In this document: piece by piece, positions 26,266-48,119 of the stretch
Layout: every line of letters begins with the position of its first letter
Position numbering within the stretch: the first letter of the stretch is position 1
Assembly: GCA_001002325.1 (NCBI GenBank)
Contig: LCNZ01000006.1
Coordinates: 130 to 64,129 of the forward strand
Source of the DNA: Candidatus Amesbacteria bacterium GW2011_GWB1_47_19
GTDB taxonomy: Bacteria; Patescibacteriota; Microgenomatia; CAZETR01; Amesbacteraceae
Direction of reading: 5' to 3'
DNA length: 64,000 nucleotides
The notes under the pieces: model-generated
Told to the model about the DNA's origin: nothing
Database searches by the model: none
The model's input: only the letters and a program-made list of their open reading frames with translations
Program-made: the position numbers and the translations under genes

Positions 26266-26303
26266 GCCGTCTAATCATACCAGTATGCTAATATGATTGG
26301 TAG

Positions 26304-27383: not shown

Positions 27384-28522
27384 TCTTTCGTTTTCCAGAT
27401 GATTTTGTTGTAAATAATGTAGTTGGTAATTAAAACCAGAATTAAAGCGCCGAAGAAGAAAAACTGAATGACGAACGGGCTGCCTTGGGCGACATCTTCA
27501 CCGATTTTTAACACCGTGTACTGAATGCCCAGTGCAATGAAGGACGTTAAATTAAACTGGAGAAATTTGAAAATAATTTTGGATCCGGCAATCCGGTACT
27601 CTCTGAAGGTCCATAGATTGTTGAGGGAAAAGTTGCTGATGATGGCCATCTCACCCCCGATTACCGTGGCTATGGAGGGAGTGAGTAAATGCATAAAGAC
27701 TGATGTGACTTCGAAGAACGCAGTTTGAATGACTAAACCGGTACCACCGACAATTACGAATTTTATGAAGCGCATAATTTTGGGGTTTTGCATCTGCAGA
27801 CGGAAGATAACTCTCAGCGTCTCCTGCATTTCGTTTTTGATGATTTTTGATTCACCTGAAGTACGGTGGGCGAACAGGAAAGGGACTTCTTTTACTTTGG
27901 CGCCTTTCTGAACCATATAAAAAAGCAAATGAATCTTGTAAGCGAAACTTTTTGATAACAGTTTGGAAAAGTCGAATCCGTCCATGAATCCTTTTACCCT
28001 GGCCAGTTTGAAACCTCCTGTGACATCATGAATCTGCGGCAGGATCAGAAATACCCGGGCTACAATATTTCCGACAACGCTTAAAAACTTGCGTTTAAAA
28101 CTCCAGGCCACGGGAATCGAACCGCCGGGGATGTAACGGGAACCGATGATGTAGTCATAACCGTGATTAATTTCGGCAATCAGCCGGGGTATATCCTGTG
28201 GCGGGTGCTGGAAATCACTGTCGAATTCCATCAGATAATCCGCATCCAGCTTTTCCATAGCGTAACGCATACCTTTGGCGTACGCCATGCCCAAACCCTC
28301 CTTTTTGTTTTCGACCAACAGATGCAGCCAGGAATAAGTTTTTTGCAGAGAACGGATAAGTTCGGCAGTACCATCCGGGCTGTTACCGTCGACATAAAGG
28401 ACTTCGACAATATGGTCGGGAATACCGGGTAGAATTTCAGCCAGGGTCTCGATCATCCGGTCGGTATTTTCCCTCTCGTTGTAGGTGGGGATGATAATAA
28501 TTATTTTCATATTTATAATCAT
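27380..28522 (-). CDS. GtrB/Dpm1-like GT2 polyprenol-phosphate glycosyltransferase fused to a GtrA-like flippase domain
   Basis: An N-terminal 'IIIIIPTYNEREN ... VLYVDGNSPDGT ... EFDSDFQHPP' GT2 domain is followed by a C-terminal 4-TM GtrA-like domain with the 'NNLWTF' motif. Confidence 0.7.
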   Translation of the reverse strand: MIINMKIIIIIPTYNERENTDRMIETLAEILPGIPDHIVEVLYVDGNSPDGTAELIRSLQKTYSWLHLLVENKKEGLGMAYAKGMRYAMEKLDADYLMEFDSDFQHPPQDIPRLIAEINHGYDYIIGSRYIPGGSIPVAWSFKRKFLSVVGNIVARVFLILPQIHDVTGGFKLARVKGFMDGFDFSKLLSKSFAYKIHLLFYMVQKGAKVKEVPFLFAHRTSGESKIIKNEMQETLRVIFRLQMQNPKIMRFIKFVIVGGTGLVIQTAFFEVTSVFMHLLTPSIATVIGGEMAIISNFSLNNLWTFREYRIAGSKIIFKFLQFNLTSFIALGIQYTVLKIGEDVAQGSPFVIQFFFFGALILVLITNYIIYNKIIWKTKD

Positions 28523-30249: not shown

Positions 30250-30524
30250 GAATTTATCAACAGCGTGCCGAAGATCAGGACAGCCAGGAGGGCGATTAAA
30301 ATATATTCGGCAATAATTTTAATATGCAAATCCCGGTGGTCATAGTGATGAATTATACCCCAGACTACATACGAAACCCCCATACTGATGATAATGGCTA
30401 ACTGCATGCGGGGCTGGTGGGCATACCAGAACAAACCCCACAAGCCAATAACCTGTACACACAATAAGGTGAAGTAATGCAGGGGGTGACGGGAGAAATC
30501 TTTTTCAAAAATAATTCTATTCAT
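30246..30524 (-). CDS. small 3-TM membrane protein, hypothetical
   Basis: ATGA overlaps at both ends (30521-30524 and 30246-30249) indicate translational coupling with the CAP-domain gene and thpR. Confidence 0.5.
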   Translation of the reverse strand: MNRIIFEKDFSRHPLHYFTLLCVQVIGLWGLFWYAHQPRMQLAIIISMGVSYVVWGIIHHYDHRDLHIKIIAEYILIALLAVLIFGTLLINS

Positions 30525-31363
30525 ATAATTTGGCCACGAATGAGAGTAATGGCAGCCAGGGCAACCACAGCCAGGAAAATAAAGTGGGCGAAACTTTTAC
30601 TGGTCCAGCGGACTAGCCGCCGACGGTTAACTATGACCACATCCAACAGCAGAACTGCTGCAAACAGTACCAGCAGACTGACGGAAAAAATTTTGGTCAA
30701 TGTAAAAGGTGAAGTGACCGGTGCGGATGTGGGCAGAACTTCCTGAGCTTTAACTGTAAAAGCCGAACCCACTGCCGCAGTCGCTGGAGCCTGCCCCAAA
30801 CGCGTACCGAACATCTGAACGACCAGAGTGGTTTCCCTCCCTCCTAAATTTCCGTCGGCCACAGCCACCCCCATATCCCGATAGCGGTTGGAAAGCATAT
30901 TTTCCCGGTGAGACGGTGAGTTCATCCAGGCTTGGACCACCGAGTCCGGATCCGAAAAATCCCGGGCCAGGTTTTCTCCGGCATAGCGGTAGGAGTAACC
31001 GGCGGCGGTTATAAAAGTCCAGGGCTGGGTTCCGGCAGGTGAGACGTGCGACCAATAATCCCGGGCAAACATATCCGCAGCTTTACGGGCGGCGGCGGCG
31101 GATAACTGCGGGTCCAGCTCCAGAGCCGGCAAGCCCTGGGACTGGCGCTGCTGATTGGTGAGTGTAAGTATCTGTACGGGTTGAATAACGGAGGCATAAC
31201 CCAAAATCCGGGGGTAACGGTAGGATATTTTTCCCACGGCCATCTGAAAAACCAGAACCAGTGACAGAACTACCAAAAGTGATGAAGGGTGGAGAATTTT
31301 TGCGCGCTGATTGTTAGTGTGATGCGGCAGAAAAAGATGCGTAATTACGGACATTAGCTCCAT
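30521..31363 (-). CDS. CAP/SCP/PR1-like (YkwD-type) domain protein, membrane-anchored
   Basis: 'YAGENLARDFSDPDSVVQAWMNSPSHRENMLSNRYRDMGVAV' is the CAP domain signature. N- and C-terminal hydrophobic segments are present. Confidence 0.65.
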   Translation of the reverse strand: MELMSVITHLFLPHHTNNQRAKILHPSSLLVVLSLVLVFQMAVGKISYRYPRILGYASVIQPVQILTLTNQQRQSQGLPALELDPQLSAAAARKAADMFARDYWSHVSPAGTQPWTFITAAGYSYRYAGENLARDFSDPDSVVQAWMNSPSHRENMLSNRYRDMGVAVADGNLGGRETTLVVQMFGTRLGQAPATAAVGSAFTVKAQEVLPTSAPVTSPFTLTKIFSVSLLVLFAAVLLLDVVIVNRRRLVRWTSKSFAHFIFLAVVALAAITLIRGQII

Positions 31364-31420: not shown

Positions 31421-31451
31421 ATTGACAAAGTACCGGTTTCGAAATTATTCT
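31421..31451 (+). promoter_or_regulatory. candidate sigma70-type promoter for the 31548 repeat-protein gene
   Basis: TTGACA at 31421-31426, a 17-18-nt spacer, then TATTCT. Palindromes ctacatca/tgatgtag and tgtcaat/attgaca lie at 31376-31427 in a divergent intergenic region. Confidence 0.3.
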
Positions 31452-31547
31452 TTATAGGCCGACCGCCAACGGAGGCGAGAAACATTTCCTCAATTTTTGC
31501 CTAGAGGTGTTTTTTGGGATTTTTCCACAGAAAGGAGGTGATAAAAA

Positions 31548-32132
31548 ATGAAGTTAATCAAGACTGCTTTAATTTCCGGAGTCTTCGCTGCTTTTGCGGT
31601 ATTACCGGTAATGGCTGATGAGGTGACCATCGCCGACAACGGAGCCAAATCGGATAATACTGTAAAAATCGTTGACGAATCCAGCACCGGCGTATTACAG
31701 GGAAATGCGACCATCGTAGTGACCGTGGCCGAGGTTAAAAGCGACAGCGGTGATAACACTGCCAGCAAAAATACCGGCGGTGACACTACGGTCAAAACCG
31801 GTGACGCGTCCTCTCTTTTGAAAGTAAGTGTGGAAGGCGGATCGAACGAAGCCTCTCTGCCTGAGCCCTGCGGTTGCCCGGATTCCAACGTGGTCAAAAT
31901 CAAAGATAACGGCTACAAATCCGACAACAAAGTCGTAATCAAGGACTCATCGTCAACTTTTGTCGGCCAGGGAAACCTGACTGGAGTACTGACGCTGGCC
32001 AAAGTTGCTTCCGATACCGGAGACAATAAAGCCAATGCCAATACCGGCGGTAATACAAAAATCAAGACCGGTAAAGCCAGTTCCACTTTGAAAGTCAAAG
32101 TGACCGGATCGTCCAATACCATCAATCCGTAG
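31548..32132 (+). CDS. secreted protein with two copies of the ~73-aa TGNG/NTGG/TGDA repeat module (no anchor)
   Basis: Signal peptide 'MKLIKTALISGVFAAFAVLPVMADE', a strong RBS (aaaggaggtg) and two tandem module copies joined by a 'EPCGCPD' Cys pair. Confidence 0.8.
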   Translation: MKLIKTALISGVFAAFAVLPVMADEVTIADNGAKSDNTVKIVDESSTGVLQGNATIVVTVAEVKSDSGDNTASKNTGGDTTVKTGDASSLLKVSVEGGSNEASLPEPCGCPDSNVVKIKDNGYKSDNKVVIKDSSSTFVGQGNLTGVLTLAKVASDTGDNKANANTGGNTKIKTGKASSTLKVKVTGSSNTINP

Positions 32133-32154
32133 CAATACTCGGGTTACGGAAAAT

Positions 32155-32184
32155 AAAAGCCCTGCCCATGGTAGGGCTTTTTTT
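32155..32184. terminator. bidirectional rho-independent terminator
   Basis: The hairpin aaaagccc-tgcccatggta-gggctttt has A/T runs on both sides. It sits between convergent genes that end at 32132 (+) and 32187 (-). Confidence 0.65.
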
Positions 32185-32186
32185 GA

Positions 32187-32819
32187 TCACAAGCGCACGG
32201 GTTTAGCCCTGACAATCAATCGTTTGGAATCCAAAAATCCGGAACAGGTGAAGAGAGTCAAAATTTCGTCGGTGGCCGGGGATATTACTTCCGTCTGGTC
32301 GGGAGACACCAACTTTGTGGTATCCACTGAATACCGGTACCATCGACCCGATGTCAGTAAATATATCCGGTCGCCGGTTTTAATATTTCTCAGGGACACA
32401 AATAACCCTTCCCGAGCGTGGGCGAAAATGACGGTATTTCCGGATTGGCCGGGATTGGCAGAGCCTACACCGTGAGAAGCAGATGTTTCTGACAACTCCC
32501 AATAACCGTTAATGACTTTGGCTTCCACCACCGGCAGGTCGATGTTGATGCCGGGGATTAGAATCCGGACGGGCGGTTGGGGCGGATCGACCGGGGATAA
32601 TAAGCCGGGATCAATGCGGATGGGGCCGGCAACCGCCGGGAGAGAAGGAGCCGGGGAAGGAGCAGGTGATATCCCGGGTGTAGTAACTGAGATAACCGGT
32701 GCCGAATCTACCCGGCGGTATAGTTGGGGGAAGAAAGCCAGAAGAACGCCGGTGACGATCAGACTGATTTTGACAGCTTTTCGGGGAAAACGCTGTAATA
32801 TTTGGCGCAAATTAAGCAT
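32187..32819 (-). CDS. sortase (transpeptidase), membrane-anchored
   Basis: 'VIFAHA' His motif, 'LTLFTCSGF' (TLxTC active-site Cys) and a downstream Arg. The start is the ATG at 32819 (MLNLRQ...) rather than the long upstream extension. It overlaps the upstream gene's 3' end by 61 nt in another frame. Confidence 0.75.
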   Translation of the reverse strand: MLNLRQILQRFPRKAVKISLIVTGVLLAFFPQLYRRVDSAPVISVTTPGISPAPSPAPSLPAVAGPIRIDPGLLSPVDPPQPPVRILIPGINIDLPVVEAKVINGYWELSETSASHGVGSANPGQSGNTVIFAHAREGLFVSLRNIKTGDRIYLLTSGRWYRYSVDTTKLVSPDQTEVISPATDEILTLFTCSGFLDSKRLIVRAKPVRL

Positions 32820-33379
32820 AGCGCTCCAGCCAGATAAAAAGCGTATTCGGAAAATCCTGCGGGTCCAGCGGTAGCTGACAGGCCCAAAACCTGAGTACCC
32901 CCCGTCCCCCCTCCCCCATCTCCGGATGACGAGCCTCCGGATGAAGAAGGTGATGATGAACCGGTGTTGTTTTGGGGCAGGCTTCCCGGGTCCGGAACAG
33001 GTGTGGAAGTAGGGTTGACGGCCGATCCGGGATCGGGAGTGATCTCCGGTGCGGGAGTGGCACAGCAATCGGTTTTGACGAAATTGGTGTTGAAAAAGTT
33101 TTTGATATCCACCTCTGTAGTTGCATCCCCGGTTTGGATCACGGCGTTGCCGGAATTTCCCGAAGCGGAATTACCCCCGGTATTGGCTGATGATTTGATA
33201 TCGTTCACCACATCGATACTGTTTCCCTGCCGGACATTTATTGATGATCCCGACTGAACGACAATACTGTTTTCCGATCCGCCACCATTGCCGGTGATAG
33301 TCAGCTCCTGGGCAAAAACCAGGCGGGATATTCCGGAAAGAGTGAGAAGAAAAACTACAAAAATAATTATCCTTGGCAT
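32759..33379 (-). CDS. secreted repeat-module protein with C-terminal TM and charged tail (sortase-substrate-like)
   Basis: Signal peptide, one TGNG...NTGGN...TGDA...DCC module, a Pro/Ser/Gly linker, then 'LSATAGPAG'-[TM]-'KYYSVFPEKLSKSV'. Confidence 0.65.
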   Translation of the reverse strand: MPRIIIFVVFLLTLSGISRLVFAQELTITGNGGGSENSIVVQSGSSINVRQGNSIDVVNDIKSSANTGGNSASGNSGNAVIQTGDATTEVDIKNFFNTNFVKTDCCATPAPEITPDPGSAVNPTSTPVPDPGSLPQNNTGSSSPSSSGGSSSGDGGGGTGGTQVLGLSATAGPAGFSEYAFYLAGALCLICAKYYSVFPEKLSKSV

Positions 33380-33416
33380 ATGTCCGGCAGGTCCTCGACC
33401 GGCTCGGGCAAGAAGT

Positions 33417-35624
33417 TCAGAGGGGCAAGCGGCGAAGTTTGAGTAGGCCGAGTATACCAGCGGCCGGAATGATTAGCAACAACCAAGCTAAATTGATATG
33501 AATTATTTTTCGACTCAATCCGGAGGGTGCGGGGGTAATGATCACATCCCGCAGATCTCCGGCAGTGAAACTGGCGATCAAGGCGTCGGGTTTGGATTCA
33601 CTGTCGATCGCGAAAACTCCGGGTTTCCTGCCCAGGAGGCGGCGAATACCGGATTTGATTGTGGCTGTTTGGCCGGGGTTGGAAGGAGTTTGTGATGTCA
33701 GGACAGAAATAGCCGGTGCGGTAGTGGGAGCAGATGACTCCTGTAAATCGGCCCCACCGACGGCCGGTTCAGACACGGGATTAGAAATATTTTCGGATTG
33801 AGCAGTGACCGGTAGATCCGGGTTCGGGGTTTTCTTTTGTCCGGATGTAACAAAGTCTCCCAGCCAACTGCCGAAGACGTTGACTACCGATACCACCAGC
33901 CGGCCGCCTCCTGTAATGTTGTTGTTGACGAAATTAACCAGATTGGCAATTATCTGGGCGTCTCCGGTAAGAATTCCGTTGGAACCACCGGTGTTGTAGC
34001 TGGCGGAATTTCCGCCGGTATTGGCGGAAAGCTGTAAATTGTTATTCAGATCGGCAGTATTGGTCTGGGTTGTGGTGTTGGTAGTAGCGGTATCCACATT
34101 GGTGGTGTTGACCGAGCCGGCGCCGTTGCCGCTGTTAACGGCTGTAATTTCACCGTTGGGGCCGACGGCGAATTGGGTACCGGGAGAACCGGCATAATTG
34201 GTGCCGTCGGGTGATCCGAAAATCTTTCCGATCCAGTTTCCGGCTTCATTAACCAGCACCAGCCACCAAGTACTCCCGGACACGTTGGAATTGGCCACGT
34301 TCAGAACGGAGGCGGTGACGGAAGTGTCTCCCGTGGAAATCAGGTTGTCCCCGCCGGTGTTACCGGTGGTCTGGTTGGAACCGGTATCGGCATCCAGGAC
34401 CAGATTGTTATCGATATTAGCCAGGTTGGACTGATAGGTAGAGTCGGTGACGGTTGTATTGACGTTGGCGGTATTGACCGAACCAGCCCCATTATCCGTG
34501 TTGGCGACGGTAACATTCTGACCGCAGCAGGGGCCGAATTGTTCCTCCGGGAAGACGATGTCCCCTATCAGATCACCGTAAATATTAATCACACCGTAAA
34601 CCACATTACCGGTAATATTGTTGTTGGCAAAAGTTAAAGCGCTGGCGGAAACATTGGCATCACCGGTAGTGATCAGGTTATCACCTCCGGTGTTGAAGTT
34701 TGTCTGATTTCCTCCGGAATCCGCAGACAAGATCAGGTTGTTACCTACAGTGGCATCATTATTCTGGAATGTCGTGTTAGTGGTACTGGCTGTCAGATCG
34801 GTAGTATTGGTTGAATCCGCTCCATTCCCTGTATTGGCCAGTGTGACATCATTCCCCCCGCAGCCGGATATACAATTGGCTGCGAAGTCCAGCACATAGT
34901 CTCCCTGATGATCGTCAACAATGTTAAATTCAGATACGCTGACTCCGGCGAGATTGGTGTTCACCGAGGTGATGGCCGTGCCCGAAACATTGGCATTACC
35001 GGTTTGAATAAGCGAATTACCCACATTCATCGAGGCGGAATTGTCGCCGGTATTACTGGTCTGGTTTAAGTCGTTGGATACTGAAACGGAATTATTCTGG
35101 GTGGTGGAATTGGTGTCGGAAATCTGCATCGAGCCGGTGTTGTCCGAGCCGGCGCCATTGCCGGTGTTGGATATACTTATGCCTCCCCCGGTACCGGTGG
35201 GAGTTACAGCCAGGTTGGTGTTGGCTTCGGAAATGACGATGCCCGAATTGTCGGCATCGCCGGTAGCGATGATGGTATCTCCAGTCTGTCCATTTTGTAC
35301 CACGCCATCAACCGGCGTAGGTGTCGGGTTTGAATCGGATGCGATTACAACCGGTGCGGTGGTAGGTGCGGGGTCGGAAACTGCAGAAGTAGGAGAGGGA
35401 TCAGCGGGAGCGGGGGCAATAGTCGGGGAAGCCTGGGTGATAGTCGGCTGGGGAACAGCCGTGGGTGCGGGAGGGGGGGTATCCGCCGGCGGAGGCGGCG
35501 GGGGGGGCGGGGGAGGAGGGGCTTCCTGAGCCCGGATCGGAAGGACCTGAACCAGCAAAATGCCGCAGAGAGCGACGACAGACAGCAGTTGCTGAACAAA
35601 TCTCAATTGCTTTTTTATTAACAT
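33417..35624 (-). CDS. large secreted surface protein with about five TGNG/NTGG/TGDA modules, a poly-Pro N-terminal stalk, and a C-terminal TM plus basic tail
   Basis: 735 aa. Signal peptide, then 'PPPPPPPPPPPPADTPPPAP', then repeated 'NTGNGAGS.NT...Q.N....NTGG.N.I.TGDA.V.A....ANNNITG' units. The C-terminus is 'ITPAPSG..[TM]..KLRRLPL'. Confidence 0.75.
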   Translation of the reverse strand: MLIKKQLRFVQQLLSVVALCGILLVQVLPIRAQEAPPPPPPPPPPPADTPPPAPTAVPQPTITQASPTIAPAPADPSPTSAVSDPAPTTAPVVIASDSNPTPTPVDGVVQNGQTGDTIIATGDADNSGIVISEANTNLAVTPTGTGGGISISNTGNGAGSDNTGSMQISDTNSTTQNNSVSVSNDLNQTSNTGDNSASMNVGNSLIQTGNANVSGTAITSVNTNLAGVSVSEFNIVDDHQGDYVLDFAANCISGCGGNDVTLANTGNGADSTNTTDLTASTTNTTFQNNDATVGNNLILSADSGGNQTNFNTGGDNLITTGDANVSASALTFANNNITGNVVYGVINIYGDLIGDIVFPEEQFGPCCGQNVTVANTDNGAGSVNTANVNTTVTDSTYQSNLANIDNNLVLDADTGSNQTTGNTGGDNLISTGDTSVTASVLNVANSNVSGSTWWLVLVNEAGNWIGKIFGSPDGTNYAGSPGTQFAVGPNGEITAVNSGNGAGSVNTTNVDTATTNTTTQTNTADLNNNLQLSANTGGNSASYNTGGSNGILTGDAQIIANLVNFVNNNITGGGRLVVSVVNVFGSWLGDFVTSGQKKTPNPDLPVTAQSENISNPVSEPAVGGADLQESSAPTTAPAISVLTSQTPSNPGQTATIKSGIRRLLGRKPGVFAIDSESKPDALIASFTAGDLRDVIITPAPSGLSRKIIHINLAWLLLIIPAAGILGLLKLRRLPL

Positions 35625-35729
35625 TTTTTAAAAATTTATAATTTCTAATTACTAATTTCTAAATAATTTTTTTGAGTTTGCGAGGTGGTCTGTTGAAGTG
35701 CTAACAGACTCACCCCACAAACATCAAAA

Positions 35730-36986
35730 TTAGACTAAACCGAGCCAACCCATTAATTGACCCAGATTCAACGTGATGTTGAAATCGAAATCAAAATCGG
35801 ACCAGTTCGGTAATTCAGGCCAGTCAATGCCGGCACCTTCACCGTAAACGTTGACGTTACCGGAATTTTCTACAGCTACGTGATCCCAGGCATCACCTGT
35901 GAGTATTGCCGGATCTCCTTCCGGATCCCCGGTATTCTGATCAACATCGTTTTTGCCGGTATCAGAGTCGCCATCAAGGTAGTTTTTGAGGAGAGCAAAA
36001 TTGCCTGCCCCATCGTAACCTTGGTTAACCCACAAATCATTGCCCAATTTGGCGTAAATATCATTATCGGTTTCGGCTCCGTTCACACCGATCTTGGCGA
36101 GAAGATCGACTACACAACCACAATCAACGTCGGCTGAATTGAAGTTGACCATATTATCCACTTCAATCCAAGTCTTGGCGTTTCCGGTGTGAAGTAAAAC
36201 ATCACCTCCGGTATTCTGGTTGGCGTCGTTGTCGCCGGTATCGGCATCGGCATCAACTTCGTTGAATACTTTTGCTGAATTCTCCTGGTTCAGAGTTATG
36301 TCCTGATCCAGTTTGAGATAGATATCGTTGATGGATTTGTATCCGTTACCAACGATTTCAGCCGAAAGCTCTGAACCTGATTGGCCACCACTTCCAACCT
36401 GGACTTCGTTTGCGTTGGCGATAGTGGAGATTTCAACTTTGGCTTTGGCATTGCCGGTGGCTACCAGCACTTCACCCCCAGTATTCTGGTTGGCGTCGTT
36501 GTCGCCGGTATCGGCATCAGCATCTACATCATTCTTGACAAAAGCTTTGTTGTACTGATCAACATAAATGTCACCATAATCTTTGATCGTGGCGTCATTG
36601 TCTGTTTCAGCACCGTTTTCAGAAATGAGTATATGGGTATCCCCCAAGTCACAACAATCAACGCTGGCAATGTTGGAGTTTAAAAGGTTTGAAACCGCCA
36701 CTTTGGTGGAGGCATCACCTGTTAAAACACCCACGCTACCCCCGGTATTCTGATTTGCATCGTTATTCCCGGTATCGGCGTCGCTTTCAACTTTGTTGAT
36801 GACGATAGCTGTATTTTCCTGGTAAACCGTAGTGTCACCAGTAAACTTGACAGTTGCATCGTTTGTGGAGTTATACCCGTTTCCCGTTATTTCGATTGTG
36901 GTTTCAGCCAGTGCGGGAGTTACCAAGCTTAGAAACATGGTACCCGCAGAAGCTGCAGCCAACAATCTTTTTGAAAATTTTGTCAT
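35730..36986 (-). CDS. secreted protein with four TGNG...DADTG(D/N)NDANQNTGG...TG(D/N)A...DCC modules (no anchor)
   Basis: Signal peptide 'MTKFSKRLLAAASAGTMFLSLVTPALAE' and RBS aaaggaggtgag. The 'DADTGDNDANQNTGG' core recurs three times exactly. Confidence 0.8.
   Translation of the reverse strand: MTKFSKRLLAAASAGTMFLSLVTPALAETTIEITGNGYNSTNDATVKFTGDTTVYQENTAIVINKVESDADTGNNDANQNTGGSVGVLTGDASTKVAVSNLLNSNIASVDCCDLGDTHILISENGAETDNDATIKDYGDIYVDQYNKAFVKNDVDADADTGDNDANQNTGGEVLVATGNAKAKVEISTIANANEVQVGSGGQSGSELSAEIVGNGYKSINDIYLKLDQDITLNQENSAKVFNEVDADADTGDNDANQNTGGDVLLHTGNAKTWIEVDNMVNFNSADVDCGCVVDLLAKIGVNGAETDNDIYAKLGNDLWVNQGYDGAGNFALLKNYLDGDSDTGKNDVDQNTGDPEGDPAILTGDAWDHVAVENSGNVNVYGEGAGIDWPELPNWSDFDFDFNITLNLGQLMGWLGLV
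36210..36520. repeat. intragenic near-identical DNA repeats (39-nt identical cores at 36210-36248 and 36482-36520; diverged third copy at ~36744-36780)
   Basis: 'gtattctggttggcgtcgttgtcgccggtatcggcatc' occurs twice verbatim inside the 35730-36986 gene. It encodes the DADTGDNDANQNTGG core. Confidence 0.8.
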
Positions 36987-37279
36987 TTGTATTTTCTCAC
37001 CTCCTTTCGGTTTATGATTTTCCCCTTTGATAAACTCCGGGGAAGCACTTCGACTCCTCCAAATAAACGGAGGCCTCTTTTTCCTTCCGCCAGTTGGCGG
37101 GAAGACTAAGAAGCCTCCGTTTGCGGTCAGCTTTAATTTTTTAAAGTCGAGAGTCGTAACTTCTAAATCCGGGGCAGTTGATTCAGATTATGAAGTTTTT
37201 AACGCTTTTATATTTTGAATTATCTTATAATTGTTTAGTATATACCGGACCGTTTGTCAAGTATCAACAGACATTTCTG

Positions 37280-37480
37280 TTAGTGTGGCTTTGCCGTTAC
37301 CTGCGACTTACCAAGAGTTTTTTTTATATTGCGGACTGTAATTTGAGTAACCATGTTGTCCTGGACGAATATTTCCAGGCTGCCAAATCCCTGAATTGTT
37401 TTTAAAGAATGGATAATTTCATCAATTAAAGATTGTGACAAAATCTGAGTAGAGTACTTATTCAGGGGTTTGGCGCTCAT
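37280..37480 (-). CDS. YezD/DUF2292-like small protein
   Basis: The 66-aa 'IHSLKTIQGFGSLEIFVQDNMVTQITVRNIKK' resembles the YezD core. An ATGA overlap at 37477-37480 with the upstream gene supports it being translated. Confidence 0.45.
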   Translation of the reverse strand: MSAKPLNKYSTQILSQSLIDEIIHSLKTIQGFGSLEIFVQDNMVTQITVRNIKKTLGKSQVTAKPH

Positions 37481-38181
37481 TGTAAATTCAAATCCACTGT
37501 GGATTTTTCACCTTCAATTTCTCCGATCATAAGTTTTAAATTTTTATCCGAATCATTTATCGGAAACCCCAGTCGCGTGTATTTGGTGGAAGTGGGCTGG
37601 ATGATAACCGGATCGTTATGTATTTCCGGAGCTAATAATTCGGCAGTATTGTCATTGACGGTTAATCGGAAATAATCTTTGGCGTTGATTTCCAAAGCCC
37701 GGGCAAAAGTGCTGGTTATTTTTATCGTTAGTATAAGAAATGACCGGCCTTCGACCGATGTCGCTCTTTGACCTTTGACAATAATTTCATTGCGAAGTTC
37801 TGCCAATTCAAGCAGAAATTTCACCTCGGTTACTGTTTTTCCTTTTGAATCATTCAGTGGAAACAGAAATTCCTGATTCAGTTGCTGAGAAGCTGTAGGA
37901 CCCGCTATGACTACCCTGCCGTCTGCAGAAATGTTTGTCCTGGATATTGTTTTTTTGGCAGTTACCCTGCGTAATACTCCCAAAATCCACCAAATGGTAA
38001 TACCGGCAGTAATAATAAGGATAAGTAAAGGAAGAGTCTTTTTCAATCGCCAGCGTCGTAAATTTAGCCTGTAGGTTAAAGCCTGTCTGATGCGAACCGG
38101 ATAGTCTCTAAAAGATAAAGTCATGATCTGTCTAAAAAAACAAAAACTGCCTTTTGGCAGTTTGGGTCTGAATGCTAACAA
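37477..38181 (-). CDS. single-pass membrane protein with extracytoplasmic beta-rich domain, hypothetical
   Basis: One TM ('LPLLILIITAGITIWWILGVL') then ~170 aa. The start could also be the internal Met at 38124. Confidence 0.5.
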   Translation of the reverse strand: MLAFRPKLPKGSFCFFRQIMTLSFRDYPVRIRQALTYRLNLRRWRLKKTLPLLILIITAGITIWWILGVLRRVTAKKTISRTNISADGRVVIAGPTASQQLNQEFLFPLNDSKGKTVTEVKFLLELAELRNEIIVKGQRATSVEGRSFLILTIKITSTFARALEINAKDYFRLTVNDNTAELLAPEIHNDPVIIQPTSTKYTRLGFPINDSDKNLKLMIGEIEGEKSTVDLNLQ

Positions 38182-38186
38182 GAAGC

Positions 38187-38636
38187 TTATTGGTTGTCAA
38201 TAGTAACCCTGATGCGGGTAGTAACAGTACCTGCAGCTTTGGATATTTCGACGGAGATTTTGATGTTGTCAGCACCGGCACCAACTAATTTGTTCAAAAC
38301 CGAGTCGTTGGTTTTTGTCTGGACATAAGACCTGACATTAAGCCCTATGGCATTAATCTTTTCTTTATACCAGAGGGTAACTTTGTCCGGATCGTCAGGT
38401 GTCTCGTAAGTATCCGGTGATACCAAAACAGAGCCCGGATAGAACCAGATGGTTTCGGGGGGAGGGGCTATCGGCAAGACCGGGGTGGTGCGGGCGACCG
38501 GAACCGGGGTGCGGGAGGGTACAGGAAAAGGAGTCGGTGATAATTCCGGAGTTACCCGGGGGGGGATGCGAGGCGGACGGAAAACGATTCCGAAGACAAA
38601 TATCAGGGAGGCAGCTAATATTGCCAGTGCTTGCAT
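38187..38636 (-). CDS. membrane-anchored Pro-rich-linker protein, hypothetical
   Basis: An N-terminal TM is followed by 'PPRIPPRVTPELSPTPFPVPSRTPVPV' and a ~90-aa C-terminal domain. Confidence 0.5.
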   Translation of the reverse strand: MQALAILAASLIFVFGIVFRPPRIPPRVTPELSPTPFPVPSRTPVPVARTTPVLPIAPPPETIWFYPGSVLVSPDTYETPDDPDKVTLWYKEKINAIGLNVRSYVQTKTNDSVLNKLVGAGADNIKISVEISKAAGTVTTRIRVTIDNQ

Positions 38637-38669
38637 ATCCTCTCCAATTATGACACCAGAGTCAATTGT

Positions 38670-39212
38670 TCAGACGGGAGTAGCCGTGAGAATGAGGCGC
38701 TGGCGATCCAGAAAACCAGTGCAGGTATACAGAACCAATGCAGAATCAGCGGCGGTGACTGGTGAAAGGGCTGAAATTTCTTTGGGGCTGACTTTGGAAA
38801 TGTTGATTATTTTGAAATCGCGGGTGCGGCCGTTGGCAAAAGTTATACTAATAATCTGACCTGTTTTGGCCTGATGTAAGGGTTTTAAGAGACGCGGCCA
38901 GTTGTGGCCGTACATGATGGACACGCCTGATTGACCGGGAAGCGCTGTGGATAAAAGAAAAGTGACCCCGTCGGGAGTGGCGGGAAAACGGGAGCTGAAG
39001 ACATCGGCGGCATATACCGGCAAGTCGATGCCCACTTCCGGCAGTAAAATCCGGGAAGGAAGACTGGTAACACCCAGCTTTGAAGGCGGGTTACGGGTAA
39101 AGCCGGATGCAGGAATCGACAGTGGGGCGAATCTTTCCAGTATCAACAATCCGGCGGCAGCGAAAGCCAATAGCGAGAGGATAAAAAGAAGCAGGGGGAG
39201 TTTAGCGGTCAC
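38670..39212 (-). CDS. sortase (transpeptidase), membrane-anchored
   Basis: N-terminal TM, 'IMYGHNW' His motif, 'LVLYTCTGF' TLxTC motif and a downstream Arg. Confidence 0.8.
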   Translation of the reverse strand: MTAKLPLLLFILSLLAFAAAGLLILERFAPLSIPASGFTRNPPSKLGVTSLPSRILLPEVGIDLPVYAADVFSSRFPATPDGVTFLLSTALPGQSGVSIMYGHNWPRLLKPLHQAKTGQIISITFANGRTRDFKIINISKVSPKEISALSPVTAADSALVLYTCTGFLDRQRLILTATPV

Positions 39213-40053
39213 GGTTGTACTTTTTGGCAGCTAGGGACAGTACCAAGAGGAAAGATCCCAATCCCAGAAGAATGGAGATCATGACCTGATTACCTGTGGG
39301 AGCGAAAGAGGCGGTACCAAGGACGGCTCCGCCGACGGGTTTGTCAGAGGATGAATCAGAAGGCATACAATTATTGACCGCCTTCACGGCAAAGTAATAA
39401 GTCTGACCCGGATCCAGAGCATCAACGGTGTAGGAAGTGACTTGGCCGGTATTCGGGACACCATATATATAGTCTCCGGGTTTAAGACCGTAAAGAATGG
39501 TGTAGTGGGTGGCATTGTCTATCAGACTCCAGGCAAGAATAGCTTTGGTCCCCTGGCGCTCCACCGACAACAAAGTCGGAGGCTGAGGTTTGGCTGAATC
39601 ACATACCGGGGCACCGCCGGTTCCGGGAGGGCTGAAAGTGGGAGTAGGTTCGGTACCGCCTTCATGGCAGTTGTAGCCTGAATTACGAGCGACATAGGGA
39701 GCGGCATCCAGGCCCCAGACAGCACCGGAGGGGACGAATGTCCAACCCGCCGGGACAGATTCAGAATACTTCCACCAGTCTGTCTGAATACCTGAACCGG
39801 AACCTGCGGGACAAAAACACTGAATGAGTCTGGTGTCACTCAAGGTGTATACACTGTCGCTGCCCGAATAAACCCCTGGGTCACCCACAATACCATGAAT
39901 ACCCGAGTCGTAGGCTACTTTGAGGCTGCTGCCGGAAGGGTTGGTACAGGAAGGGAAATCCGGGACTGATTGTGAAGCTACAACCGGAGAGGCAGATAAG
40001 AGAAGTGACACTAGCAAGCTTAAAGCTAAAGTGATGAGCGATATATATTTCAT
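39202..40053 (-). CDS. secreted fibronectin-type-III-like surface protein with C-terminal sorting signal
   Basis: Signal peptide. The FN3-like segment is 'PQPPTLLSVERQGTKAILAW...YTILYGLKPGD...GQTYYFAVKAVN'. The C-terminus is 'SFAPTGN'-[TM 'VMISILLGLGSFLLVLSLAA']-'KKYNRDR', directly upstream of a sortase gene. Confidence 0.65.
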   Translation of the reverse strand: MKYISLITLALSLLVSLLLSASPVVASQSVPDFPSCTNPSGSSLKVAYDSGIHGIVGDPGVYSGSDSVYTLSDTRLIQCFCPAGSGSGIQTDWWKYSESVPAGWTFVPSGAVWGLDAAPYVARNSGYNCHEGGTEPTPTFSPPGTGGAPVCDSAKPQPPTLLSVERQGTKAILAWSLIDNATHYTILYGLKPGDYIYGVPNTGQVTSYTVDALDPGQTYYFAVKAVNNCMPSDSSSDKPVGGAVLGTASFAPTGNQVMISILLGLGSFLLVLSLAAKKYNRDR

Positions 40054-40148: not shown

Positions 40149-41228
40149 TCATTGGACTATGGGTTTTCCGGTAAAAAATGTTTTGACAACATCCGCCGCC
40201 GGACGGTAGGTCAGATTGGAACCAAATTCGTCCCCGATCAGACTGGCGGTGTTACCCATGTGAACCCAATAGTTGACCCCTACCAGATACTGCTTTTCCC
40301 GCAGGCCGGAGTACATCAGGGTAATAACTTCCGCCTGCAGCTGGTCCGATACAGGCTGGAATATCTGATAACCCCATTCTCCCAGGAATACCGGTACCCG
40401 CCAGCGGCGGTAGAACTTGTCCAAATCAGCCAGAGTCTGGACCGTAACCATAAATGGATCATCCATCAGTCCAATGGTATTACTCTGACTGACGAAATGA
40501 TCCACGGTAATTATGCCCATCTTGTCTACCACTTCCTGAGTCAGCTGATTCTCCACCACCCAACCGTTGATTGATATCCAGTTGGTATGAATCTGTTGTT
40601 TGAGACCGATTGATGCAAATGCGCGGTTGGAAACCGTGATCTGAGACAGAAGAAAATGCCGGTATTGATCCCAATTGAGAAATCTTTTTCCCAAACCCAC
40701 TCCGACGTTTTCTGCCTCTACGGCCAAAGTAAAAGCATCTCCGGGTAAAAATAATCCGGGGTTAGCCTTGATAAAGCGCTCTGTCCGGGCGAGGTATTCT
40801 TCGGGATTGAGCGTTGCCGGCTGTCCTTCGTCCCCTTCCCAATCCGCCCAGTGGCTTCTGAACCAGACATGCAGACCACGGGCATGGATGGCATCCGCCC
40901 ACATATACAATTCATCCACCCGGTCATACGGTGTGCCGACAGCAATATAATTTACTCCCAAGTCCGCGACAAGTTTGACCTGTTCGGCTATAGCCCGGGC
41001 ACTGACGTCCGGCCAATGTTTACTGATAACCTGAGTGTCTATACTGCGGATGGACCAGGCAGAATCGGAAGCCGGTAGGGTTGGTTGGCTGTAATCTCCC
41101 TGGGGATAAATAACCCTCTGATGTAAGTAAATCAGTACGGCCTGAGACAAACCGCCAATAAGACAAGCTATCAGCACCGCCAGAGCAAAAAAGTCACGAC
41201 GGAAACTCTTTATTTTTGAATTGATCAT
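40149..41228 (-). CDS. membrane-anchored TIM-barrel glycoside hydrolase (clan GH-A; GH5/GH113-like)
   Basis: N-terminal TM, 'LVADLGVNYIAV' beta-strand motif, and a C-terminal 'VFLGEWGY' candidate nucleophile motif. Confidence 0.45.
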   Translation of the reverse strand: MINSKIKSFRRDFFALAVLIACLIGGLSQAVLIYLHQRVIYPQGDYSQPTLPASDSAWSIRSIDTQVISKHWPDVSARAIAEQVKLVADLGVNYIAVGTPYDRVDELYMWADAIHARGLHVWFRSHWADWEGDEGQPATLNPEEYLARTERFIKANPGLFLPGDAFTLAVEAENVGVGLGKRFLNWDQYRHFLLSQITVSNRAFASIGLKQQIHTNWISINGWVVENQLTQEVVDKMGIITVDHFVSQSNTIGLMDDPFMVTVQTLADLDKFYRRWRVPVFLGEWGYQIFQPVSDQLQAEVITLMYSGLREKQYLVGVNYWVHMGNTASLIGDEFGSNLTYRPAADVVKTFFTGKPIVQ

Positions 41229-41231
41229 AGG

Positions 41232-42878
41232 TCAGGGTAGGTCTTTGGGAGTCAGGGGAGTGGCTGTCCCGGGATCCAAACGGTAAATGTGCGAGAACGA
41301 ATCCTGATAAACCAATCTGTAATTATTAAGGAAATCGGGATTCTGGCGTAAGTGGTTGTCCACTATATCACCCCGGTGAGAGATGACATAAGCTGCGTAA
41401 GCCGAAGGTTCGGCCAAAGCTACATCCCAATAGCGCCTGACACCTTCGGTAATAAAACGCCGCAAAGGAAGCCCTGACCTGAAAAGGAGGGCATCGTTGC
41501 TGGAGGCAGCAACCAGAATCAAACCTTCCGGGGCGTGGTTTTGAATCCAGGCGGCGGCATCATCCAGATATTCTCCGCTGGCTCCCCGGACGCCATCTTC
41601 GATAGTGATAATGTTGTTACCTGTATACATAAGCGCAAACTGAATGACTATGACCGCCAGAGCCAATGCGGCAAATACTTTTTTCCTGCCGGCCAGAAAA
41701 CCGATAGCCAGTGCGGCTGCAGGCAGCATCATTACCCCGTAGCGATCGTTGAACCAGGTATAGGGAGGCAGATCCGGAAGATAAATAACGGAGTGTCCAA
41801 AAAAGAGACTGGTGACGTTGAAAACGAAAGGGGTTAACAGAGCGGCTACCGCCACTTTAACCATGCGTGAATACCGCCCGGAACTGAAGAACATTCCACT
41901 GCCTGCCAGGCTGAGAATGAGTATCCAGGTACCCAGGTTGTAACGGATCGTGAACAGGTAGACAAATAGGGAGTAAATGAAATCGAATTTGGTAGCCAGA
42001 CCGAGCTGGTACATAATGGCATCCTGCTGGGCTTTGGCGGAGAAAGGCCCGGTGACGAAGTAGAAAAAGTCTCCGAAAATTATCCGGTTCCAGAAAAGCC
42101 ATAAGACGATACCGAAACCAGCCAGTGTGCAAAAGAGAAAAAAATTGCCCTGGGCGAAAATCCACCCTTTTTTTTGTTTACCGATATAAGCCACGGCCAG
42201 CCCCATATATGCTAACAGAAACCAGCCGTCGTATCTGGTAATAGTCGTCAAAAAAGTAAAAAATGCCGCTTTGACAAGTGAAGATGTATTCAGGTCTTCG
42301 GTCCATGACAACAGGTAGAACACTGAGGCGATGGTTAAAAATAACAGCAAGGATTCCGTCATGGGGGTGGTTTGCAGGAAGATCAGGTTGGGATTGAGAC
42401 AATACACGGCCAGGCTGATGATAACTGCAGGTGTTGAAAAACGGAGCTTGCCGGAAATCCGAACCAGATAAATACCTCCGAGGACGTAGGAGACCATGGA
42501 AATCAAACTGCCGGCGATACCGCTGTGCCAGAGATAATCATTTGACACCAACGGCAATTCCAGGATGTGGAAAAGAGGCAACCAAACCGATCCGATCTGG
42601 GCAAACCCGGGCTGCAAACTGTCTACCATTCTGCGGGCGATGTTCAGATGAGAACGGGCATCGTTATAAGACAAAGTGAGATTCTGACGGAAATAAAATA
42701 TCCAGGCACCAATACTTATCAGGATCAAAAGGACCAGACACGCGGTCAGAAATCCGGCCGGGTTTCGGACCGGCTCGAGGCGAGTTGAACCAGACAGCGG
42801 CCAGGTTAACGTAATCCGGCGGGAGTTAAGACTGATCATAATCAGATGAGCGGTGGTGCAGATATACCAAGCAAACAC
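41232..42878 (-). CDS. GT-C fold membrane glycosyltransferase-like protein
   Basis: About 540 aa with about 12 TM helices and a C-terminal soluble domain. An alternative start is the ATG at 42839 (MISLNS). Confidence 0.45.
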   Translation of the reverse strand: MFAWYICTTAHLIMISLNSRRITLTWPLSGSTRLEPVRNPAGFLTACLVLLILISIGAWIFYFRQNLTLSYNDARSHLNIARRMVDSLQPGFAQIGSVWLPLFHILELPLVSNDYLWHSGIAGSLISMVSYVLGGIYLVRISGKLRFSTPAVIISLAVYCLNPNLIFLQTTPMTESLLLFLTIASVFYLLSWTEDLNTSSLVKAAFFTFLTTITRYDGWFLLAYMGLAVAYIGKQKKGWIFAQGNFFLFCTLAGFGIVLWLFWNRIIFGDFFYFVTGPFSAKAQQDAIMYQLGLATKFDFIYSLFVYLFTIRYNLGTWILILSLAGSGMFFSSGRYSRMVKVAVAALLTPFVFNVTSLFFGHSVIYLPDLPPYTWFNDRYGVMMLPAAALAIGFLAGRKKVFAALALAVIVIQFALMYTGNNIITIEDGVRGASGEYLDDAAAWIQNHAPEGLILVAASSNDALLFRSGLPLRRFITEGVRRYWDVALAEPSAYAAYVISHRGDIVDNHLRQNPDFLNNYRLVYQDSFSHIYRLDPGTATPLTPKDLP

Positions 42879-44325
42879 CGGAAAAAATTAATATGTATAA
42901 AATGATCGCAAAAATCTGCAAACTGAGGTAGGAAGACAGATAAGTCCGAAAAATAAATGAGCCGGATATCCCGGATTGAAGAAGTGAAAAATTGTGCAGA
43001 AAAGTCAGCCGGGGAATAAGGGAAGCGGATTCGGTTTCAACACTGGGTGGTATCTGGTTGGTAGTCAGAACCCCGGCCAAATTGATGGCCAGACTATAGA
43101 GAAACAGACTAAAAAACAATAAATTAAACCATAACTTCCGGCCATATTTTTCGATAGCTGTGCCTAAAGGCACAGCCAGAAAAGCCATTGCCGGAATCAG
43201 GTAGCGCGGACCAAAGGCCCATCCGCCCCAGGGGTCACCCCACATTCCATAAAGGGCTGTGACGGCAAAAATAACTCCGGCTGCAGTCCATCCGAGGGAC
43301 CGGTCCTTTTTTATCAGAGGAGCCAAACCCAGCAAACCCAATAATAGTACCGGGGTGAAGTAAATCAGCCCCCGGTCGCGGCTGGTTAACAGCACTGAAA
43401 GACTGGCCGGCAATTGCTGGTATTTAAAGAATCCGACAGCCCGGCTGTAATCGGATCCAGAATCCGACCATTCATCCAGAACTGGCTGACCGGTGGTGAT
43501 ATCAAACCGACGAACATTGGTCAAAGTCCCGGCTAACTGAAAAGGATTGTTGTAAGCCAGGCGGTTGTACCATAACAAGGGAATCAATCCCAGTACGAGA
43601 CCGGCAACAATAACCGTTAGTGAAAAGTTTAATGAAACGGAAATTTTGTCCCTAAATGATCGGATGTCCAGGTAGCGATAAGCCAGAAGCAGCAACAGCG
43701 GAATAAAGAAAATCACATTCGGATATTCAACAAAGATACTAAATCCGACCAGAATACCGATTAAAAAAGTCCGTGAGGGTGACCGGGTGAGTTGAAGCAT
43801 ATAAAAACAGGACAACAGCAAAAAAGTGGTCAGATGATGCTGGTAAAAAGTGGCCGAATAGGCCCAAGCCGGAGACGCAAAAGTGAATACCAATCCGGCA
43901 ACCAGACCGGGATACGGATTTCCCAGGAGCCGCCGCAGAATCAGAAATATTAATACCAGGTTAGCCCAGGCAAAAATAGCTGACAAGGAAAAAGTCATGA
44001 TTTGGGCTAACCCCAGGCTTTTGCCAAGTGAATACAGGGGTACCGCTAAAAGTGAAACTCCGGGGGCAAAAAGGGAAACGTATTTTCCCCCGATGTAACC
44101 CAGATCGGGAACCACAAACCGGGCAATAGGGGTGGTGAAGAAAAAAGAATTGTTTTCGACCACGGACATAGTCAGGGCATATCTACCGCGTTCCGGGGAC
44201 AATTCGAAAGGCTGGGACGGACCGCGCAAATTCTCCAATATTTCCTCAGGAGCCGGATTGCCCGGCCGGCCGTGTAAGGTCAGCATCAGGAGCAATCCCG
44301 GCAGGAGAAGGGCAAAGGTTTTCAT
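42826..44325 (-). CDS. GT-C fold membrane glycosyltransferase-like protein (PMT/ArnT-like)
   Basis: 499 aa with an N-terminal signal/TM, an 'ERGRYALTMSVVENNSFFF' loop and about 11 TM helices. Confidence 0.45.
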   Translation of the reverse strand: MKTFALLLPGLLLMLTLHGRPGNPAPEEILENLRGPSQPFELSPERGRYALTMSVVENNSFFFTTPIARFVVPDLGYIGGKYVSLFAPGVSLLAVPLYSLGKSLGLAQIMTFSLSAIFAWANLVLIFLILRRLLGNPYPGLVAGLVFTFASPAWAYSATFYQHHLTTFLLLSCFYMLQLTRSPSRTFLIGILVGFSIFVEYPNVIFFIPLLLLLAYRYLDIRSFRDKISVSLNFSLTVIVAGLVLGLIPLLWYNRLAYNNPFQLAGTLTNVRRFDITTGQPVLDEWSDSGSDYSRAVGFFKYQQLPASLSVLLTSRDRGLIYFTPVLLLGLLGLAPLIKKDRSLGWTAAGVIFAVTALYGMWGDPWGGWAFGPRYLIPAMAFLAVPLGTAIEKYGRKLWFNLLFFSLFLYSLAINLAGVLTTNQIPPSVETESASLIPRLTFLHNFSLLQSGISGSFIFRTYLSSYLSLQIFAIILYILIFSGVCLVYLHHRSSDYDQS

Positions 44326-48116: not shown

Positions 48117-48119
48117 AGA

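Follow-up and report, generated by a model that had tools for sequence, protein, structure and literature searches.

We analysed 64,000 nucleotides from Candidatus Amesbacteria bacterium GW2011_GWB1_47_19 (GenBank assembly GCA_001002325.1, contig LCNZ01000006.1, positions 130 to 64,129 of the forward strand), referred to here as the window, and describe a locus at window positions 31421-40053 in which one repeat module is shared by four signal-peptide proteins, termed A, B, C and D, encoded alongside a sortase. An initial annotation of the same DNA had placed the module in five genes. The open reading frames (ORFs) that it named all exist at the coordinates given there, and a profile hidden Markov model (HMM) built from its two example units recovered the module in A, B, C and D with domain E-values of 1e-9 to 1e-41. 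The fifth gene, at 39202..40053 and termed E below, was rejected as a carrier (hmmsearch E=9; hhalign probability 0.1%), leaving four. A second profile, made from all copies, gave per-copy E-values of 1e-22 to 1e-33 and, run against the 64 kb translated in all six frames, found no others. D and C have four modules each, A has two and B one, and C holds an additional fragment (residues 113-141) that corresponds to the C-terminal part of a fifth module. The resulting tally of 11 full copies and one fragment agrees with the earlier estimate of about 12.

The conserved core of the module spans roughly 73-80 amino acids, so that the unit of ~73 amino acids reported initially holds for the core, but the true repeat period is longer, at 88-90 amino acids in D by profile autocorrelation and about 111-122 in C. 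The longer period of C is due to a hydrophobic hairpin insert that comes after each of its modules. The period in D is also seen in its DNA repeats, spaced 264-279 nt apart. Repeat copies share only 60-77% DNA identity, and the duplications are therefore old. When the 11 copies are aligned, twelve positions never vary (N, G, N, Q, N, G, N, N, G, T, G, N), all of them Asn, Gly, Gln or Thr, and the profile autocorrelation contains a strong lag-2 (period-2) signal. Such invariance of Asn, Gly, Gln and Thr together with a period of two is typical of the ladders and arcs of beta-solenoids. A coil sub-repeat of ~18 amino acids, suspected by eye from a recurring N-x-A-x-V, was dropped as it is absent from the profile autocorrelation. 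Cys pairs (CC, CGC, CxxxC) always sit between modules, consistent with the closing pairs noticed in the initial annotation.

The module has no match in Pfam-A or NCBIfam (ten locus proteins at E<=1, and 62 D-family members against Pfam), and its profile found none among PDB sequences at E<=10. The earlier view that it belongs to no described family is upheld by these searches. Literature searches on sortases, S-layers, beta-helices, curli or amyloid in Microgenomates and Patescibacteria likewise turned up no account of the module or the locus. Among 1.84 billion representative proteins the module is present in 3,255 protein clusters, defined at 50% identity, at E<=1e-3 and in 693 at E<=1e-30, and every named cluster is annotated "hypothetical". 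Most are either D-like (~410-440 amino acids, four copies) or C-like (700-800 amino acids, five stretches); a few proteins hold up to 10 copies, and one with nine is labelled Parcubacteria. Homologues of D number at least 351, nearly all of 400-440 amino acids and none with a Pfam domain, and come from Ames-, Gottesman-, Woese- and Levybacteria and other Microgenomates. All the locus proteins are also found residue-for-residue in public Candidatus Amesbacteria metagenome-assembled genomes (MAGs), where they are "hypothetical" save for one spurious automatic name. Judged by sequence against the libraries searched (Pfam-A, NCBIfam, PDB sequences), the module is a new, uncatalogued domain family.

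The gene for D (35730..36986, minus strand) encodes a signal peptide followed by four modules, which the profile placed at nucleotides 36651-36896, 36393-36632, 36120-36359 and 35835-36095, and no anchor. The mature protein is acidic (pI 4.05), with Cys residues at positions 111/112 and 289/291. At its C-terminus an aromatic/acidic, strand-like motif leads into a short hydrophobic end (DFDFDFNITLNLGQLMGWLGLV). This ending is conserved in the D family as NSGNxNxYG…WP(E/D)F(D/N)F(N/D)F(N/S)LSLxLSxLLxxLGL, with no basic tail, and the orthologues have four modules within 406-474 amino acids. The alternating aromatic/acidic stretch (window 35730-35830) is a low-confidence region of the AlphaFold2 model described below; the D C-terminus could be a docking or donor strand. 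A (31548..32132) is transcribed divergently, from the plus strand, and consists of a signal peptide and two modules (31623-31856 and 31893-32126) with a CGC linker, ending straight after the second module. We propose D as the major secreted subunit and A as a minor secreted subunit or cap.

C and B have C-terminal tails. C (33417..35624, minus strand) comprises a signal peptide, a poly-Pro/Thr spacer, the module fragment (35205-35291), four modules (34935-35174, 34602-34838, 34263-34508 and 33906-34139), a stalk and an anchor, the module positions again being those of the profile. The inserts that follow its modules, such as VVYGVINIYGDLIGDIVF or RLVVSVVNVFGSWLGDFV, are aromatic with the pattern (V/L)VxVxNxxGxWxGxI(F/V) (33906-35174) and are absent from the other paralogues. 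Beyond the modules lie a Ser/Thr/Pro stalk of ~100 amino acids, a juxtamembrane KIIHINLAW, a transmembrane segment and a basic tail. Orthologues of C have four to five modules in ~700-800 amino acids, and in at least 65 of 72 the tail (33417-33530 in the window) runs from KKxx(I/V/L)NLAW straight into the transmembrane segment and basic residues. The layout is tripartite like a sorting signal, yet unlike LPxTG or any motif known to us. An SFTAG sequence, probably the one counted as a motif in the initial annotation, was considered as a sortase site of C and rejected, as it lies ~30 amino acids upstream of the anchor region and is not conserved. Only 30 of 65 orthologues have a loose (V/L)(A/L)G(I/F)S, 14-48 amino acids ahead of the transmembrane segment. 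The tail may serve simply to anchor the protein or may be recognised by an unknown sorting enzyme, and we propose C as a membrane-anchored paralogue. One Woesebacteria locus (L025, 11311-14451, protein P0389) has at the C position a protein of 1046 amino acids and seven modules that ends in …AILGLSATSSE and has no INLAW tail, apparently a C-B fusion or a truncated form.

B (32759..33379, minus strand) has a signal peptide, one module (33062-33301), a DCC motif, a Pro/Ser/Gly spacer, the sequence VLGLSATAGP, a hydrophobic segment and a basic tail (C-terminal peptide …QVLGLSATAGPAG…). Most of the 60 orthologues examined end in (V/I)LP(A/V/I)TG, a transmembrane segment and YLR(F/L)xSGxSP. A minority that includes the window protein has (V/I)(L/M)GL(S/A)xT(S/A)G at this position, in the window as the variant VLGLSATAG before the hydrophobic segment and a K-rich tail. 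B has the pentapeptide, hydrophobic segment and basic tail of an LPxTG-type sorting signal, and we propose on this pattern that it is a sortase substrate, which would be cleaved and attached to the cell wall. Its orthologues contain one or three modules in 182-408 amino acids. The family is bimodal across our loci (L003-L084), with one-module forms of ~190-240 and three-module forms of ~350-410 amino acids; GLSxT(S/A)G-type signals occur in the one-module forms and in one Woesebacteria-type group, and LPxTG in most three-module forms.

The sortase gene beside B, sortase 1 (32187..32819, minus strand), encodes 210 amino acids from an ATG at 32819, although the mechanical ORF extends to 33068; this start agrees with an identical 210-amino-acid gene called in public Amesbacteria MAGs. 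The protein has an N-terminal transmembrane segment, a Pro-rich linker and the His (FAHAREG), Cys (LTLFTCSG) and Arg (KRLIVRA) motifs. It matches the Pfam family Sortase (PF04203) at 3e-25, with 88.8 bits against a cutoff of 26.6, and scores 59 bits, above the cutoff, with TIGR01076. Sortase 2 (38670..39212, minus strand; 180 amino acids; His YGHNWP, Cys LVLYTCTG, Arg QRLILTA) is paired with E. It matches Pfam Sortase at 7.4e-17 (61.7 bits), does not pass TIGR01076 and falls below all NCBIfam cutoffs. Neither protein reaches the NCBIfam class A-F cutoffs (140-166 bits), the best class score being that of class C, at 53 bits for sortase 1 and 33.8 bits for sortase 2 against a cutoff of 160.

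These searches also bear on the wider picture drawn in the initial annotation. The two sortases that it reported are both real by their Pfam matches, but the TLxTC motif that it ascribed to each reads VLYTC in the second. Three proteins (B, C and E) do end in a transmembrane segment and a basic tail and two (A and D) have no anchor, as it stated. Its term sortase-linked is borne out by synteny in 80 other genomes and by the canonical LPxTG-type signal of the B family. Sortase-assembled is too strong, since only B (and E) carries a sortase-type signal while D has none and C has a different tail.

The synteny comparison covered 80 loci, one genome per species, using our own ORF calling with phmmer and hmmsearch, plus two look-ups of distant homologues. 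The order g149-g234-DUF2292-D-C-B-sortase-A, with A on the opposite strand, is conserved in 80 other species-level genomes from Ames-, Gottesman-, Levy-, Woese-, Davies- and Chisholmbacteria, often with a CAP-domain protein next, and the window shows exactly this arrangement on its minus strand. The sortase adjoins B in 45+ loci, and where a locus has sufficient length its gene usually comes after that of B; orthologues of A (~200 amino acids, two modules) lie beyond the sortase on the opposite strand in 41. Compared with the window proteins, the orthologues have a median identity of 55% (DUF2292), 47% (D and g234), 46% (C), 34-36% (B, A and g149) and 31% (the sortase). D and C, at 46-47%, are as conserved as the accessory genes. 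Together with the one module in four exported proteins, their complementary predicted retention and the fixed module counts, the strict co-occurrence and order of the genes throughout Microgenomates, a lineage of superphylum level, support a dedicated cell-surface system. Many of the locus-bearing MAG records (L008, L011, L015, L019 and others) are mislabelled 'uncultured Gammaproteobacteria bacterium', a placeholder or wrong taxonomic name.

D is preceded by a conserved leader. The gap between DUF2292 and D is long (median 241 nt) and contains, in 67 of 69 loci, a near-invariant GCUGACCGCAAACGGAGGC, after which comes a long hairpin with ACGGAGGC/GCCUCCGU at its base, a variable distal part and then a U-run, as in a terminator. 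In 36 aligned leaders 94.6% of the cells of the 18-bp stem are paired and 11 of the 18 pairs show compensatory changes; this pairing was reached by none of 500 shuffles, and slid registers drop to 43-57% paired. We built a covariance model from the terminator stem and searched 1.5 Mb, including loci outside the training set. The model gave exactly one strong match per locus (47-79 bits), always 100-190 nt upstream of D, which places the element in about 72 genomes with one copy per locus. The only other match is a weak one (31.8 bits) in a Gottesmanbacteria locus (L010, 15451-15528, minus strand), ~100 nt upstream of A. In the window the core lies at 37062-37135 on the minus strand (63.2 bits), within a full leader that runs from ~37225 to 36987 and includes a GAAGUGC motif, a second hairpin and a Shine-Dalgarno site. 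A candidate promoter, TTGACA-17-TAAACA, is present at ~37250-37222, and 54 of 73 loci have an exact TTGACA with a -10-like box 40-139 nt ahead of the element; no promoter-like sequence was seen between the U-run and D. The dedicated conserved leader, along with a near-consensus promoter and a Shine-Dalgarno site that matches the consensus, suggests that D is a strongly expressed, regulated product. Rfam gave no match at gathering score in the whole window, and only chance-level hits (E>=0.12) in 36950-37320.

An alternative 5' hairpin, AGCU-GA-CCG-[CAAA]-CGG-A-GGCU, is 95.8% paired and almost invariant. It uses the 5' half of the terminator stem, and the two structures are therefore mutually exclusive. 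The small hairpin varies too little for covariation to prove it. Visual inspection suggests that pairing is also possible between the 3' half (CCUCCGUUUU…) and a downstream AAAACGG/GGAGG segment ahead of the GAAGUGC motif. From this arrangement we infer that the element is a transcription-attenuation leader of D. Its hairpin could instead simply terminate transcription of the upstream genes, a reading that we disfavour, since ~70 species share an unchanged flank and stem base and most loci have a TTGACA promoter after DUF2292 and ahead of the hairpin; the element may also represent a separate small RNA. The D leader resembles the RAT/terminator antitermination leaders of the BglG/SacY type and riboswitch platforms in having a promoter-proximal intrinsic-terminator hairpin whose 5' half can join a conserved small upstream hairpin. 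It differs from them in lacking any match in sequence or in Rfam and any sign of a PRD/CAT antiterminator gene.

An AlphaFold2 model of D, based on a 62-sequence alignment, is all-beta with a pLDDT of 72.8 and a pTM of 0.61; the signal peptide and residues 386-406 are disordered. The model resembles only beta-helix or solenoid proteins, and these weakly. The module thus probably belongs to the beta-solenoid fold class and has no close relative of known structure. We hold this prediction with moderate confidence; it agrees with the beta-helix, one of the two folds expected at the outset. The initial annotation had in addition likened the Asp/Asn loop DADTGDNDANQNTGG to Ca2+-binding loops. The Asp residues of this loop are conserved only in the D family and are Ser or Asn in B and C, and across the paralogues only Gly/Asn/Thr positions of the region are invariant. 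Pfam searches of the locus proteins gave no match to RTX or any other Ca-binding family. As the acidic residues are not conserved across paralogues, the idea of Ca2+ binding is unsupported.

Three further genes complete the conserved cluster. The DUF2292 gene (37280..37480, minus strand) encodes a YezD-like protein of 66 amino acids without a signal peptide (Pfam DUF2292, 7.8e-6). It is the most conserved gene of the cluster and, in 69-70 loci, always lies immediately upstream of the D leader; PDB sequences gave chance matches only. g234 (37477..38124, minus strand; 215 amino acids from an ATG at 38124, with the ORF extending to 38181) has an N-terminal transmembrane helix and an extracytoplasmic beta-sandwich of the MPT63/YjhA/YcdA type, assigned by a fold match to solved members. 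g149 (38187..38636, minus strand) has an N-terminal transmembrane segment, a Pro-rich linker and a C-terminal domain of ~85 amino acids, with no family match in Pfam or NCBIfam, and lies upstream of g234 in 44-48 loci. We propose that g149, g234 and DUF2292 are conserved accessory or regulatory genes. That the DUF2292 protein is a trans-acting factor of the leader is pure speculation from adjacency.

E (39202..40053, minus strand) has a signal peptide, a Cys-containing N-terminal domain, an FN3 domain (Pfam, 2.3e-8), VLGTASFAPTGN, a transmembrane segment and the terminal KKYNRDR. The tails of its orthologues read VLGLATTGN or FAPTGN/D followed by a transmembrane segment and basic residues, and E is, by its predicted LAxTG-like signal FAPTG, a separate sortase substrate without the module. 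Among the fetched loci the pair of E and sortase 2 is found only in L001, L005, L006, L007 and L017, together with a protein of 359 amino acids. E, sortase 2 and the 359-amino-acid protein occur in few Amesbacteria-like genomes only and are therefore an add-on cassette.

At 30521-31363 on the minus strand the window encodes a CAP/SCP-domain protein with a C-terminal membrane segment and then a membrane protein of 92 amino acids, neighbours that recur in at least 12 other loci. The locus is flanked at 24064-28522 and 40149-52121 by envelope glycosylation genes (GT2 and GtrA, PMT_2-like membrane glycosyltransferases, a 1333-amino-acid GT2/GT4 fusion, GNAT, PIG-L), with the same neighbours in L001. 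Their products might modify the Ser/Thr-rich stalks. Over the whole window nearly all genes of at least 150 amino acids are on the minus strand, plus-strand GC skew stays above zero in nearly all 2-kb bins and the cumulative skew rises monotonically. Strong strand-composition disparity has been described in another Microgenomates genome (PMC7143001).

Taken together, the four module proteins all have Sec signals and differ in their predicted retention, which would be to the wall for B, to the membrane for C and by neither means for D and A. We propose that they build a composite surface coat or fibre, and assign this reading a probability of roughly 0.45. The adjacent sortase would cut B at its LPxTG-type signal (LSATAG here) and join it covalently to peptidoglycan, while C would be held in the membrane by its C-terminal anchor and span the wall on its Ser/Thr/Pro stalk. 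The anchorless D (major, four modules) and A (minor, two modules) would be exported by Sec and would dock or polymerise on the modules of B and C through beta-solenoid stacking or sheet extension. The Cys pairs between modules may add disulfide links; MdbA-like oxidoreductases and VKOR, enzymes that form disulfides outside the cytoplasm, are over-represented in genomes of the Candidate Phyla Radiation (CPR) (PMC6744442). D would be transcribed from its near-consensus promoter through the leader, where the terminator hairpin would make expression conditional. The product may be either a fibre or a two-dimensional layer. The fixed module number and protein length are more in keeping with subunits of defined architecture than with a stalk of variable length or an adhesin that evolves fast.

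A number of observations weigh against such an assembly. D has no known docking motif, and neither the window C nor the tails of its orthologues show an LPxTG-like motif at the C-terminal transmembrane segment. The autocorrelation of the module profile gives lag 2 and lag 88/90 only, and with no coil-length sub-repeat detectable within the module its solenoid geometry is unconfirmed from sequence. The module proteins are hydrophilic and acidic, unlike chaplins, and neither Pfam nor hhalign relates the module to curli in sequence. Beta-helical adhesins that act independently would be expected to show the same gene content. In that case the proteins would be monomeric adhesins or host-attachment proteins, some of them anchored and others released, and their clustering would reflect paralogy rather than co-assembly. 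We consider this the main rival and, on balance, unlikely: the anchorless D and A could not tie a cell to its host, the four paralogues co-occur strictly in one order, which suggests joint function, and module number and length are fixed at 45-47% identity across class-level lineages, whereas host-specific adhesins usually vary in repeat number and diverge quickly.

Less probable again is that the module is a ligand-binding or catalytic beta-helix acting on the environment or a host wall rather than a structural subunit. Candidate activities would be Ca2+ or mineral, ice or polysaccharide binding, or a lyase-like function, the first of which is the idea already weakened by the pattern of Asp conservation. 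The presence of one or two sortases inside a cluster of secreted proteins would suit a covalent, sortase-polymerised pilus in the Gram-positive style, with D as the shaft pilin. However, only B (and E) has a sorting signal; D and A have none and could not form the acyl-enzyme intermediate needed for polymerisation. Since it is the major protein that lacks the signal, and since Pfam and NCBIfam searches detected no Cna-B, Ig-like pilin or pilin-motif family and sortase 1 falls short of the class C cutoff (53 against 160 bits), we regard such a pilus as very improbable. The sequences are low in complexity, being rich in N, T, G, S and D, and the repeat might on that ground be a compositional artefact in ORFs that are not real genes. 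At least 80 genomes nonetheless encode the long signal-peptide ORFs with protein identities of 30-64%, the duplications are old by the DNA identity of the repeat copies (60-77%), and the module is carried by ~3,255 clusters at 50% identity, by which the artefact is effectively refuted.

It is possible to take the composite coat or fibre further. The cluster might encode a hitherto unrecognised, lineage-wide surface organelle of Microgenomates, a self-templating, functional-amyloid-like beta-solenoid coat or fibre in which D and A polymerise on the sortase-attached B and on C with its new INLAW-type anchor. Synthesis of D would be gated by a new class of antiterminator or riboswitch-like leader RNA, possibly read by DUF2292. 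We hold this extended version to be doubtful. A regular surface layer was reportedly seen by cryo-electron microscopy on ultra-small groundwater bacteria by Luef and colleagues in 2015, and the module system could be the molecular identity of the layer.

Microgenomates and other CPR bacteria are abundant, almost entirely uncultivated and thought to live attached to other cells. To our knowledge their envelope proteins are essentially uncharacterised apart from type IV pili. The locus defines an uncatalogued repeat domain of ~3,255 protein clusters at 50% identity and gives a testable model of a surface structure, as D, A and the module regions of B and C can be produced recombinantly without cultivation. 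The D leader is a candidate new cis-regulatory RNA; we know of very few such RNAs in the phylum. Sortase is near-ubiquitous in Microgenomates, where the enriched families are mostly hypothetical membrane or surface proteins (Meheust et al. 2019, PMC6744442), and the locus provides this enzyme with a concrete, conserved family of proposed substrates.

Several known surface systems invite comparison. Gram-positive pili and other LPxTG proteins share with the locus a sortase gene that adjoins its substrate and the tripartite signal of the B family. They differ in that the major conserved protein here has no such signal, pilin folds and motifs are lacking and the sortases fall in no defined class. 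Beta-helical S-layer proteins such as RsaA and RTX proteins differ in other respects, as the locus shows neither GGxGxD nonapeptides nor a HemolysinCabind match, and type I secretion genes and SLH or other known S-layer anchors are missing. With curli the likeness would be functional, CsgB and CsgA being a nucleator and a major subunit that share one repeat. The curli or Fap unit measures 19-23 amino acids against the 88-90 of D, which has no visible sub-repeat, and anchoring in the window is by sortase and transmembrane tail. There is no Curlin_rpt (PF07012) match at E<=1, and hhalign gave a probability of 0.2% against a manually entered E. coli CsgA sequence. CsgG/E/F and FapF secretion genes are absent, as expected for a monoderm-type envelope.

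A close parallel may lie in the chaplins of Streptomyces (ChpA-H) and their class E sortases. In that system sortase-anchored long forms and secreted short forms co-assemble into a surface layer (PMC5618241). The window system likewise has paralogous secreted proteins with one common domain, predicted anchored forms and signal-peptide-only forms, and conserved Cys pairs. Class E sortases recognise LAxTG (PMC5618241), to which the motifs LSATAG in B and FAPTG in E (LATTG in relatives) are similar. The two systems differ in their domains, that of chaplins being hydrophobic and ~40 amino acids long and the module hydrophilic, acidic and 73-90 amino acids long, and there is no match to Pfam PF03777 in A-D or in 62 D-family members. 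Moreover, the protein with the largest number of modules in the window is anchorless, and its sortases score below the class E cutoff. Membership of the chaplins and of curli fails in both cases, and the likeness in combining anchored with secreted forms would be one of function only. If co-assembly of the module proteins is true, a third domain family, unrelated to those of chaplins and curli and found in a deep-branching lineage, would use their strategy of anchored plus secreted paralogues.

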